Below, one piece after another: positions 29,396 to 31,417 of a stretch of 37,007 bases of DNA. Each line of letters starts with the position of its first letter. The first letter of the stretch is position 1. This stretch comes from an uncultured Bacilli bacterium (GTDB lineage: Bacteria; Bacillota_I; Bacilli_A; RF39; UBA660): assembly GCA_947632265.1 (NCBI GenBank), contig CANROP010000002.1:1-37007 (forward strand), in the 5' to 3' direction. The position numbers and the translations under genes were made by a program. The notes beneath the pieces were generated by a model. That model searched no databases. It was not told the origin of the DNA and was given only the letters and a program-made list of their open reading frames with translations.

Positions 29396-29424
29396 TTTAC
29401 ATAAATTTTCTTTTATTGTATAAT
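29396..29424 (+). promoter_or_regulatory. promoter of VirB2-like paralog 4
   Basis: TTTACA at 29396-29401, 17 nt, TATAAT at 29419-29424. GGTGAT at 29431-29436, ATG at 29441. Confidence 0.55.
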
Positions 29425-29440
29425 TAAATTGGTGATTTAA

Positions 29441-30337
29441 ATGAAAAAGACTATATATTGCTTATTAATAGCTATATCATTTTTAATTTTTACAGATGTT
29501 GTAAGTGCTGAAGATAAATTGGTTAGCGAATGTGAATATTCTGGATTTAAACTTAAATTTAATAAGGAAGATTGGTCTTTCGTTGGCATTACTTCTAAAA
29601 ATACTGATTTATTCATATATAAAATTTCAGATGAATCATTAGAGAATTTTAATCATTTAGAAAAAAACATATGTCCTGTTGTACATTCTTGTTATGTAGA
29701 GGGGTTAGGCACAGGAACTTATACATATAATATTTATCCTGACGATTTAGATGTTAGTTGTTCTTCTCCAACTAAAGATATATGTACTGGAGGAGATGCT
29801 TGTAATTCTGATTATGAAGGTTCATGTCCTACATATAATAAACTTAAACAAGATATAGCGGATAAATATACAAAATATATTAAAACAAATCAAGTATCTT
29901 ATTTAAACGATGTAAATAAAAAAGTTGACCAGTTAAGAGGAATGTGTGGAAATATAATGCAGTACGTAGATTATGATGATGTTTGCTTTAATAGTTGTAA
30001 TGGATTAAATAATGACCTTGAAACTATTGGTATTTTGAAAAAAAATACTAATTCATGCGGATTTTCAGATACTTTGCTTGCATGGATAAAAAACATAATA
30101 CGTGTAATAAAATATATAATACCAGTAATAGTAATAGTATTTGGTATAGTTGATTTTATAAAAGCAATTGCTTCAGATAAAGATGATGAGATGAAGAAGG
30201 CACAAGGAAGATTTATAAAAAGATTAATAGCTGCAGCTTTAGTATTTATAGTACCATTTATAATAGAATTTGTATTAGATAAAGCAGGATTTATAAATGA
30301 TGAATGTGCAGTAGATTTAGGAAAGATAGGATTATAG
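29441..30337 (+). CDS. VirB2/TrbC-like two-TM protein, paralog 4, with ~190-aa Cys-rich N-terminal ectodomain
   Basis: 298 aa. Signal peptide (..DVVSA|ED), 13 Cys in the ectodomain, then CGFSD, TM1, KAIASDKDDEMKKAQGRFIKRLI, TM2. Confidence 0.6.
   Translation: MKKTIYCLLIAISFLIFTDVVSAEDKLVSECEYSGFKLKFNKEDWSFVGITSKNTDLFIYKISDESLENFNHLEKNICPVVHSCYVEGLGTGTYTYNIYPDDLDVSCSSPTKDICTGGDACNSDYEGSCPTYNKLKQDIADKYTKYIKTNQVSYLNDVNKKVDQLRGMCGNIMQYVDYDDVCFNSCNGLNNDLETIGILKKNTNSCGFSDTLLAWIKNIIRVIKYIIPVIVIVFGIVDFIKAIASDKDDEMKKAQGRFIKRLIAAALVFIVPFIIEFVLDKAGFINDECAVDLGKIGL
30055..30337 (+). repeat. copy A of a ~283-nt direct repeat (3-prime core of paralogs 4 and 5)
   Basis: By eye, ~7 substitutions and one 3-nt indel versus 31114-31399 (about 97% identity). 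Confidence 0.85.
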
Positions 30338-30352
30338 GTTTATAATCCTTTT
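30329..30352 (+). terminator. rho-independent terminator overlapping the stop codon
   Basis: Stem GGATTATA (30329-30336) / TATAATCC (30341-30348), loop GGTT, then TTTT. Confidence 0.6.
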
Positions 30353-30358
30353 AAAATG

Positions 30359-30387
30359 TTTACATAAACTTTATTTTATTGTATAAT
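30359..30387 (+). promoter_or_regulatory. promoter of VirB2-like paralog 5 (duplicate of 29396-29424)
   Basis: TTTACA at 30359-30364, 17 nt, TATAAT at 30382-30387. GGTGAT at 30394-30399, ATG at 30404. Confidence 0.55.
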
Positions 30388-30403
30388 TAAATTGGTGATA
30401 CAG

Positions 30404-31399
30404 ATGAAAAAAATGCTTTATGTATTAAGTTTTATTACAATTTTTTTAATTCTAAGCACTGATGTAATTGCTAAGACAAAGACATATACTTACAAAGATT
30501 TTTATATTGATTTAGATAAGGATAATTGTTCAATAGTTCAAGAAGATGGTGAGAGAAAATACAAGTGTACAATTAACAAATTTAAATTACATGGTATTGA
30601 TGGGGAAAAAGCCTCTACATCTTTAAGAGAAATTAATTTATATACATTTGAATCTGACGAAGTAATGAATAATAGTGACAAATTTTGGGCTAATCTAACT
30701 GTTTGTACCATAGAGACCTTAGCTTCAGCAGGGACCAATATAACACTTGCAAAAGTGTATACAAGTTCATCGCTTATTGACAACAAATTATTTACCTCTA
30801 TAGAGCGAGAGTGCTTTCAGTATAATGTAAGCGATACAGATGAGGAAGATAAAGTACACGATTCATGTGAATTATATTCAAAATATCATGATGAAATTGA
30901 AGAAAATGTCGAAAGCTATATTGCTTCAACCAATCAAGAAGAAAAACTTACATATAAAAATGAATATAATAAAAATGTAGATCATTTTAAAAATGTGTGT
31001 AGTCAAATGATGAGTTTTGTTAATTCTACAGATCCATGTGTTAAAAGATGCTTAGAGCTTCAAAGTGATGTAAAAGCCTGGAATAGACAGATGGGAAATT
31101 CTGGTATAGGTGGATGCGGATTTTCAGATACTTTGCTTGCATGGATAAAAAATATAATACGTGTAATAAAATATATAATACCAGTAATAGTAATAGTATT
31201 TGGTATAGTTGACTTCATAAAAGCAATAGCTTCAGATAAAGATGATGAGATGAAGAAGGCACAAGGAAGATTTATAAAAAGATTAATAGCTGCAGCTTTA
31301 ATATTTATAGTACCATTTATAATAGAATTCATATTAGATAAAGCAGGATTTATAAATGATGAATGTGCAGTAGATTTATTAGGAAAGATAGGATTATAA
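30404..31399 (+). CDS. VirB2/TrbC-like two-TM protein, paralog 5, with ~230-aa divergent N-terminal ectodomain
   Basis: ATG 30404 chosen by analogy with paralog 4; the ORF-track TTG 30392 overlaps the SD. Signal peptide (..DVIA|KT). C-terminal 94 aa nearly identical to paralog 4. Confidence 0.6.
   Translation: MKKMLYVLSFITIFLILSTDVIAKTKTYTYKDFYIDLDKDNCSIVQEDGERKYKCTINKFKLHGIDGEKASTSLREINLYTFESDEVMNNSDKFWANLTVCTIETLASAGTNITLAKVYTSSSLIDNKLFTSIERECFQYNVSDTDEEDKVHDSCELYSKYHDEIEENVESYIASTNQEEKLTYKNEYNKNVDHFKNVCSQMMSFVNSTDPCVKRCLELQSDVKAWNRQMGNSGIGGCGFSDTLLAWIKNIIRVIKYIIPVIVIVFGIVDFIKAIASDKDDEMKKAQGRFIKRLIAAALIFIVPFIIEFILDKAGFINDECAVDLLGKIGL
31114..31399 (+). repeat. copy B of the ~283-nt direct repeat
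   Basis: See 30055-30337. Contains an extra TTA codon (DLLGKIGL versus DLGKIGL). Confidence 0.85.
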
Positions 31400-31417
31400 A
31401 ATTATAGTCCTTTTCTT
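31391..31417 (+). terminator. rho-independent terminator overlapping the stop codon
   Basis: Stem GGATTATA (31391-31398) / TATAGTCC (31403-31410) with one G-U pair, then TTTTCTTT. Confidence 0.5.

Follow-up and report, generated by a model that had tools for sequence, protein, structure and literature searches.

A 37,007-nucleotide (nt) window of the forward strand from an uncultured Bacilli bacterium (contig CANROP010000002.1, assembly GCA_947632265.1) carries two adjacent genes, W_A and W_B, whose products match the type IV secretion system (T4SS) pilin family PF18895. These genes are probably two modular paralogs in which recombination keeps the pilin core and the promoter homogenised, and in which the ectodomains are anciently diverged, swappable and likely to have a surface role. 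The evolutionary mechanism is well supported, and a function as swappable adhesins displayed on a pilus is plausible. The window, which has a G+C content of 27%, is the whole stretch of DNA analysed here, and the stretch is contained in rabbit-gut metagenome runs. Relatives of the locus are metagenome-assembled genomes of uncultured 'Bacilli' or 'Tenericutes', and 19 related loci (L001-L019) were compared with it. The two genes and their parts are laid out as follows.

29390-29448, + strand: 5' arm of repeat unit 1, with TTTACA (29396), a 17-nt spacer, TATAAT (to 29424), the Shine-Dalgarno (SD) sequence GGTGAT (29431-29436) and the ATGAAAAA start; matches the sigma-70 consensus at 11/12 positions
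29441-30337, + strand: gene W_A, 298 amino acids (aa)
29441-29509, + strand: W_A signal peptide, predicted cleavage after VSA
29510-30054, + strand: W_A variable ectodomain
30055-30337, + strand: W_A VirB2-like pilin core, made of CGFSD..., a first transmembrane helix (TM1), the DKDDEMKKAQGRFIKR loop, a second transmembrane helix (TM2) and a C-terminal Cys tail; 97% identical to the W_B core
30328-30349, + strand: W_A candidate intrinsic terminator, a weak hairpin spanning the stop codon, with TTTT after it (-8.7 kcal/mol, z -1.4)
30353-30411, + strand: 5' arm of repeat unit 2, with TTTACA (30359), a 17-nt spacer, TATAAT (to 30387), SD GGTGAT (30394-30399) and ATGAAAAA, from promoter scan and alignment
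30404-31399, + strand: gene W_B, 331 aa
30404-30472, + strand: W_B signal peptide, predicted cleavage after VIA
30473-31113, + strand: W_B variable ectodomain
31114-31399, + strand: W_B homogenised pilin core, from alignment and synonymous divergence
31390-31411, + strand: W_B candidate terminator, a hairpin spanning the stop codon, with a T run after it (-12.6 kcal/mol, z -3.1)

The start of W_B was taken as the ATG at 30404, rather than the TTG at 30392 given in the mechanical list of open reading frames (ORFs), because this ATG and the W_A start are homologous, and GGTGAT precedes each of them by 4 nt (5 nt spacing). In 27100-31600, no sigma-70-like match is better than the W_A and W_B promoters, and one upstream of RNase R equals them at 11/12. 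A search for RNA runs returned none. Both hairpins are weak, AT-rich and 9 bp long, and each overlaps its stop codon and precedes a T run; neither is called by a terminator scan that requires G+C. The first-pass annotation had proposed units of promoter, SD, signal peptide, ectodomain, two-helix core and terminator. This anatomy stands up to the core, and its terminators amount to weak AT-rich hairpins that a consensus scan misses.

Global alignment, read through sliding-window identity and segment counts, recovers the mosaic of near-identical ends and divergent middle that the same annotation had estimated by eye. The segment comprising promoter, SD and ATGAAAAA (29390-29448 versus 30353-30411) is identical at 53 of 59 positions (90%). 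Within it, the 41-nt stretch TTTACA-17-TATAAT-GGTGAT (29396-29436 versus 30359-30399) holds exactly the 2 mismatches originally counted. This stretch has no other occurrence in the window, where shuffles expect 0 and none of 100 reached 2. From the core to the stop codon (30055-30337 versus 31114-31399), 275 of 283 positions are identical (97%). The copies differ by 7 substitutions in coding positions, a changed third base in the stop codon and the insertion or deletion of one TTA codon, which agrees with the earlier figure of about 7 substitutions plus one TTA. In contrast, the signal peptide and ectodomain (29449-30054 versus 30412-31113) reach 45% identity in aligned columns, with 100 gap columns (Fisher p = 4e-61 for middle versus core). 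The switch in identity is sharp and lies at the TGC (Cys) codon of CGFSD, so that divergence across the genes is far from uniform.

Silent sites follow the same boundary. By the Nei-Gojobori method, synonymous divergence (dS) between W_A and W_B is 0.089 in the core, whereas the 75 codons immediately upstream give 1.26 and the ectodomain as a whole gives 1.62. Such a step, about 15-fold inside one gene, goes beyond what protein-level constraint can produce, and core and ectodomain therefore differ in age, through recombination. The relatives repeat it, with core and ectodomain dS of 0.24 and 0.94 in L012 and of 0.037 and 1.23 in L016.

The cores evolve in concert in five lineages of related uncultured Bacilli, in each of which they are alike within a genome and unlike between lineages. 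Core nt identity is 97% for the window pair, 94% for L012, 99% for L016, 98% for L009 and 95.5% for L017, whose ectodomains are unalignable, whereas between lineages it falls to 71-81%. Synonymous differences affect about one third of conserved core codons between lineages, against 2-10 of about 82 within genomes. Adjacency is not required: in L016 and L017 the copies occupy separate sites about 1.8 kb apart, with RmuC and DUF2238 genes between them, and homogenisation is therefore independent of it. In the tandem pair of L009, homogenisation reaches about 100 codons farther into the upstream part of the gene, with dS falling from about 1.0 to 0.05 near residue 140; the ends of the tract are thus variable, as conversion predicts. 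Beyond these loci, 18 protein pairs among the 120 best family members combine cores at least 95% identical in amino acids with ectodomains of 6-85% identity. Gene conversion, one of two options originally offered, is thus supported by synonymous sites homogenised in the core only and by cores that group by genome. The advice to search related strains for further cassettes with conserved ends was also productive, as near-identical cores with divergent ectodomains recur in relatives.

Comparison of two conspecific strains dates the process. The core holds 5 informative sites that group by strain, 3 that are crossed and 1 that groups by position; immediately after the stop codon, every site groups by position. 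Core dS between the paralogs (0.089) is close to flank dS between the strains (0.04-0.145), and the last homogenisation is therefore about as recent as the strain split. As a control, the tandem PGA_cap paralogs 2 kb downstream (33603-34760 and 34750-35886) are 58% identical in amino acids and group by position across species, a pattern that indicates a pair without homogenisation. This PGA_cap pair is kept in most of the related species examined and is single-copy at a few loci.

The ectodomains differ even between these strains. Loci L012-L015 represent a conspecific strain, recovered as an identical assembly in 4 independent samples, with flanks 97% identical in nt to the window. The genes at its two corresponding positions encode 443 and 445 aa, with ectodomains of 349 and 351 aa. 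These ectodomains share 34-41% aa identity with that of W_A over the W_A length and include an additional domain of about 150 aa; with that of W_B, 65-83 residues align at 28-33% identity. The W_A signal-peptide DNA is closer to the second-position gene of L012 (73% identity) than to its first-position gene (53%), which means that cassettes have switched between the two expression sites as well. In two rabbit-gut samples, X6 and X7, contigs cover the flanks, promoters and cores at about 97%, whereas depth is zero over parts of the ectodomains (29410-29620 in X6; 30465-30886 in X6 and X7) and low elsewhere. In one of these contigs, a core end runs into a promoter and leader like those of W_A and then into unrelated sequence. 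Cassette exchange, the other option in the first-pass annotation, thus finds support in a conspecific with different ectodomains and in samples that hold the flanks but not the ectodomains. Core DNA pattern scans of GTDB genomes and JGI metagenomes gave 0 matches, the species being absent from those sets, and a core-only protein search returned short fragments only, of no use for listing alleles.

In the source sample, two low-depth Logan contigs, of runs X3 and X1, carry W_B-type bases in the W_A core (30154/30157/30169 and 30242/30271/30272). These bases could be a conversion-tract polymorphism in the population or mixing of assembler paths. At about 3-6x depth, the contig-level Logan data confirm junctions and do not suffice to prove conversion polymorphism.

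The ectodomain difference looks old rather than fast. The ratio of nonsynonymous to synonymous divergence (dN/dS, Nei-Gojobori) lies between 0.46 and 1.03 in the window, L012 and L016 pairs, where dS is saturated. In the unsaturated L009 pair, whose ectodomains are 69% identical, it is 0.29-0.85 over the variable N-terminal part (windows to residue ~150). The suggestion of diversifying selection accordingly gains no support from the dN/dS check proposed for it, with values below or about 1 wherever measurable. The closest ectodomain relative of W_B belongs to another species (L001, 31% identity, versus 25% for W_A). A word-based search with the W_B ectodomain among 1.84 billion representatives returned nothing, and an exhaustive HMMER search found relatives of at most about 33% identity over most of its length, with a maximum of 39% over a 99-residue stretch. 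These data fit old alleles that were kept, or imported, by recombination.

At the protein level, both genes encode members of PF18895 (T4SS_pilin), with 28.4 bits for W_A and 29.1 bits for W_B against a cutoff of 26.6 and with the profile covered from 1 to 71 of 71; NCBIfam gave no family for either protein. AlphaFold2 (AF2) models, built on alignments of about 110 sequences, give both proteins the same order of parts: a signal helix, a beta-rich domain, a Cys-stabilised helical region and two helices of about 35 residues. For W_A (predicted local distance difference test, pLDDT, 81) the beta domain spans residues 27-117, the helical region 130-196 and the hairpin 208-281; W_B (pLDDT 83) has the same architecture. 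The core helices are predicted at 208-244 and 248-281 in W_A and at 240-276 and 280-313 in W_B, in addition to N-terminal signal helices in both. The two-transmembrane pilin core first proposed from the letters is in keeping with the PF18895 scores and with this modelled hairpin.

Conserved cysteines run through the whole architecture. C129, C169, C182, C186, C206 and C289 (W_A numbering) are invariant in 113 family members, which confirms the Cys pattern noticed at the outset. The helical region with four invariant Cys is modelled at pLDDT of about 95. Between the two core helices lies a short, charged loop of sequence SDKDDEMKKAQGRFIKR; the loop motif DKDDEMKKAQ and the flanking Cys are invariant in the family alignment. 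The predicted mature proteins measure about 275 aa (W_A) and 308 aa (W_B), including a folded N-terminal domain of 180-215 aa, whereas about 70-130 aa is the norm for T4SS_pilin members.

The pair lies downstream of a gene cluster that has the features of a T4SS of the monoderm kind, resembling the FATA class of mating-pair formation (MPF) systems. Its recognisable components are the following.

12171-12566, + strand: short pilin paralog 1, 131 aa, same core (phmmer 1.5e-15)
12576-13280, + strand: pilin paralog 2, 234 aa, with a C-terminal extension (phmmer 9.6e-18)
14497-14913, + strand: short pilin paralog 3, 138 aa (phmmer 2.8e-16)
14934-27128, + strand: span of the T4SS machinery, by Pfam/NCBIfam matches
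14934-17555, + strand: TrbL/VirB6-like protein
17790-18410 and 18410-20194, + strand: VirB4 in two ORFs, best match a VirB4 model from a Mycoplasma integrative and conjugative element
22821-24071, + strand: cell-wall hydrolase with M23 and lysozyme domains
25071-27128, + strand: VirD4 coupling protein, CD1115 family

The pilin core recurs in three ORFs of this cluster (63-75% nt identity to the 12576-13280 copy), and the W_A/W_B core shares 45-55% aa identity with these paralogs. Paralogs 1 and 3 have canonical pilin size, and with W_A and W_B the PF18895 set has five members. All five have Cys-Gly just before helix 1, the loop D-K-[DE]-D-E-[IM]-K-K-x-Q-x-x-F-I-K-R, helix 2 and a C-terminal Cys. 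The apparent split of VirB4 involves a one-base ORF overlap, with the N-terminal ORF covering 98-276 and the ATPase ORF 295-891 of NF045975. Pfam scans covering about 40 ORFs detected no relaxase.

VirD4 ends 2.3 kb upstream of the pair, and rhodanese, RmuC and DUF2238 membrane-protein genes lie between, matching the distance and the intervening genes initially described; RNase R, two PGA_cap genes and SmpB follow. The order VirB4...VirD4, rhodanese, RmuC, DUF2238, pilin fusion, RNase R, PGA_cap, SmpB is kept in more than 10 species-level genomes. Across syntenic genomes, aa identity is 91-97% for VirB4 and about 80% for both VirD4 and RNase R. That VirB4 is more conserved than RNase R is unusual in its strength for a conjugation-type machine. 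The conserved synteny with housekeeping genes and the conservation of VirB4 mark a vertically inherited chromosomal apparatus rather than a recently acquired mobile element.

Several other features of this neighbourhood were observed. L012 has a RelB/YafQ toxin-antitoxin pair at 5700-6520, between VirD4 and rhodanese; the window lacks it at the corresponding place (27129-27358), where a 64-nt remnant-like match to that region is left at 27200-27263. Tad/Flp-like pilus genes lie directly upstream of the T4SS pilins (6254-9893) and include an RcpC/CpaB-like gene (6254-7066), a CpaF-type ATPase (7070-8185) and two further membrane ORFs. Next to them, 3798-6224 encodes an 808-aa protein with DUF5411 and SpaA prealbumin-like domains, likely a surface adhesin; its internal repeats recur at a spacing of 294 nt (4216-4280 and 4510-4574), and 27-nt Pro-rich repeats lie at 5664-5735. 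L016 has a further pilin-core gene of 300 aa, similar to paralog 2, at 19550-20452, far from the T4SS. The sporulation-associated genes SpoVG, YabP and GerQ occur near the locus in L016 and L017, which is unexpected for bacteria labelled 'Tenericutes'.

These features suggest how the pair may work. W_A and W_B would each form their own transcription unit, and each pre-protein would pass through Sec and lose its signal peptide by cleavage after VSA or VIA. The hairpin of the core would sit in the membrane with its basic loop inside, leaving the ectodomain and short C-terminal tail on the outer side. Two invariant Cys, C206 ahead of helix 1 and C289 in the tail, are placed such that a disulfide may form, and in the ectodomain a helical stalk stabilised by disulfides would carry a variable, beta-rich head. 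If the VirB2 analogy holds, the T4SS may extract and polymerise the core, perhaps together with the three short pilins, and display the variable head. Repeated homologous recombination (gene conversion) probably keeps the 59-nt promoter/leader and the 283-nt core alike, likely because the core must fit one assembly machine. The same conserved 59-nt and 283-nt stretches probably act as homology arms through which whole ectodomain alleles are exchanged within and between genomes. A displayed head would then set attachment to a partner or host, or escape from phage or antibody. In its boldest form, a vertically inherited, relaxase-less T4SS of gut Bacilli would build a VirB2-type filament whose exchangeable ectodomain pilins serve as recognition modules, with core conversion keeping the modules compatible; we offer this only tentatively, as a doubtful though possible extension.

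Several points weigh against the reading of W_A and W_B as recombining, surface-acting pilin paralogs, or against parts of it. The PF18895 scores exceed the gathering cutoff by just 2-3 bits, and an N-terminal extension of 180-330 aa is atypical for VirB2. Neither Foldseek against the PDB (best E-value 0.35) nor a profile search of PDB sequences gave a significant match to a solved VirB2/TraA, although helical hairpins are discriminated poorly by such comparisons. What the data show is the mosaic, the step in silent divergence, concerted evolution in five lineages, allele replacement between strains, PF18895 membership and genomic linkage to the T4SS; pilus incorporation, surface display and the selective agent are inferred from these. 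On the evolutionary side, the sliding dN/dS has no window above 1 in L009 and is never clearly above 1 elsewhere, and gene conversion cannot be separated from reciprocal or import recombination with these data. The window haplotype is based on one contig and 3x Logan contigs from the same sample, and two full haplotypes were recovered for its species.

The likeliest alternative accepts the same recombination mosaic, with the core as a membrane anchor or channel-associated module and the ectodomain as a surface adhesin or receptor independent of any pilus. Monoderm T4SSs are generally reported without VirB2 pilins and with surface adhesins instead (PMC4027160, PMC12857230), the solved pilins gave no significant structural match, and W_A and W_B stand outside the main operon with their own promoters. 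However, the core is close to the three pilins of the T4SS operon and passes the PF18895 threshold. An invariant loop with flanking Cys is what a machine-fitting part should have, and the synteny with VirD4 is kept across species. We regard a pilus-independent role as unlikely, yet worth keeping in mind.

Programmed antigenic variation of the Neisseria pilE/pilS type, in which promoterless silent cassettes would feed two expression sites, suits the conserved arms around a hypervariable segment and the deep divergence of the strain alleles. The cassettes themselves are missing: tblastn of four ectodomains against the 37-kb window and all 19 related loci returned expressed genes only, with no silent ectodomain fragments. 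Inverted repeats, shufflon sites and simple-sequence tracts were likewise not found; the inverted-repeat scan gave only AT-rich chance pairs and terminator palindromes, and no recombinase appeared in the Pfam scans. The identical L012 haplotype in four independent samples also argues against rapid switching. A programmed system of this type therefore seems improbable.

Still less probable is that the tandem duplication is young and that the ectodomain then changed by very fast positive selection, or by hypermutation, recombination playing no part. The copies are adjacent, as this requires, and the L009 ectodomains have retained considerable identity. Yet selection on protein leaves silent sites unsped, and ectodomain dS is saturated (1.3-1.6) against 0.09 in the core; the W_B ectodomain is nearer to that of L001 than to that of W_A, and the dispersed copies of L016 and L017 share the pattern. 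For hypermutation, the Pfam scans of about 40 ORFs found no reverse transcriptase or repeat of a diversity-generating retroelement (DGR), and no template-like repeats were seen. A DGR was rejected as an explanation on these two grounds.

Two further accounts are the least probable. Purifying selection and codon preference might by themselves keep core and promoter alike, given a core protein highly conserved across the family, but they are at odds with the synonymous divergence of core DNA between lineages and with informative sites that group by strain and not by position. An assembly chimera of two strains joined through the repeated core is conceivable because 265-nt near-identical repeats are hard for short-read assemblers and two Logan contigs hold W_B-type variants in the W_A core, but independent Logan contigs of the same sample span most junctions: from the flank into W_A, from its ectodomain to its core, from that core through the intergenic region into W_B, from the W_B ectodomain to its core and from the last 17 nt of the W_B core downstream. 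The tandem order also recurs in four other samples and in L009.

With recombining modular pilin paralogs as the preferred reading, the locus offers a clear example of domain-resolved concerted evolution, with a homogenised frame and ancient, swappable heads. It places five PF18895 paralogs at a conserved chromosomal T4SS in a Bacilli-class gut lineage, which contrasts with the absence of VirB2 stated in reviews. Whether monoderm T4SSs outside the Candidate Phyla Radiation (CPR) make pili, and what the variable heads bind, thereby become testable. The pair also provides a strain-typing hot spot in otherwise 97%-identical genomes.

Known surface filaments share parts of this design. Flagellin (FliC) and P. 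aeruginosa pilA have conserved polymerisation termini and a hypervariable exposed domain; recombination in these termini exchanges alleles between strains, and members of one species differ deeply in the allele that they hold at a single locus. W_A and W_B resemble both in this pattern of conserved ends and variable domain, although folds and assembly machines are unrelated and the variable part of flagellin, unlike that of W_A and W_B, is central between two conserved ends. In Neisseria pilE/pilS, the variable part is converted from silent cassettes. Gene conversion thus acts there too on pilin genes that combine conserved and variable portions, but here the conserved part is the one homogenised, and no silent cassettes are in evidence in the loci compared.

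TrbC/VirB2-type annotations occur in some Firmicutes elements. VirB2 pilins are stated to be absent from Gram-positive T4SSs, with Patescibacteria as the sole exception (PMC12857230, PMC4027160), a claim that is treated here with caution because of those annotations. Patescibacteria (CPR) carry arrays of 2-11 divergent VirB2-like pilin genes, in tandem or one gene apart (PMC12102498, bioRxiv 10.1101/2025.01.22.634366, PMC12857230). Their pilins are reported as small and uniformly divergent (mean 25%, maximum 54% identity), and the variation is proposed to serve host adaptation (PMC12102498, PMC12857230). As in those arrays, PF18895 genes here accompany a chromosomal T4SS of MPF-FATA type in a monoderm; most of the CPR systems lack a relaxase, and none was detected in the window. 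In contrast, the present locus has a Bacilli host, near-identical cores and promoters, and fused ectodomains; a homogenised core is undescribed for CPR.

For the Trw T4SS of Bartonella, PMC2610397, citing Nystedt et al. 2008 (Mol Biol Evol 25:287), describes tandemly amplified variants of trwL (VirB2) and trwJ (VirB5), and concerted evolution with diversification for which host-specific adhesion is proposed. Both systems have tandemly duplicated pilin-type genes and concerted evolution; here, paralogs of one genome are more alike than orthologs in part of the gene. The co-existing variant forms are surface-exposed in Trw, as they may be here. Trw is, however, a horizontally acquired system of diderm alphaproteobacteria without a coupling protein, whereas VirD4 is present here in a Bacilli-class monoderm. 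Trw pilins are small and vary within the pilin itself, whereas here a separate N-terminal domain of 180-330 aa is fused to an invariant core, and no dN/dS above 1 is found in W_A/W_B. Bartonella Trw is thus the closest evolutionary analogue and the Patescibacteria arrays are the closest by homology; the present locus differs from them in its Bacilli host, in an ectodomain fused to the pilin core, which is a new architecture, and in homogenisation that is domain-resolved and affects core and promoter.

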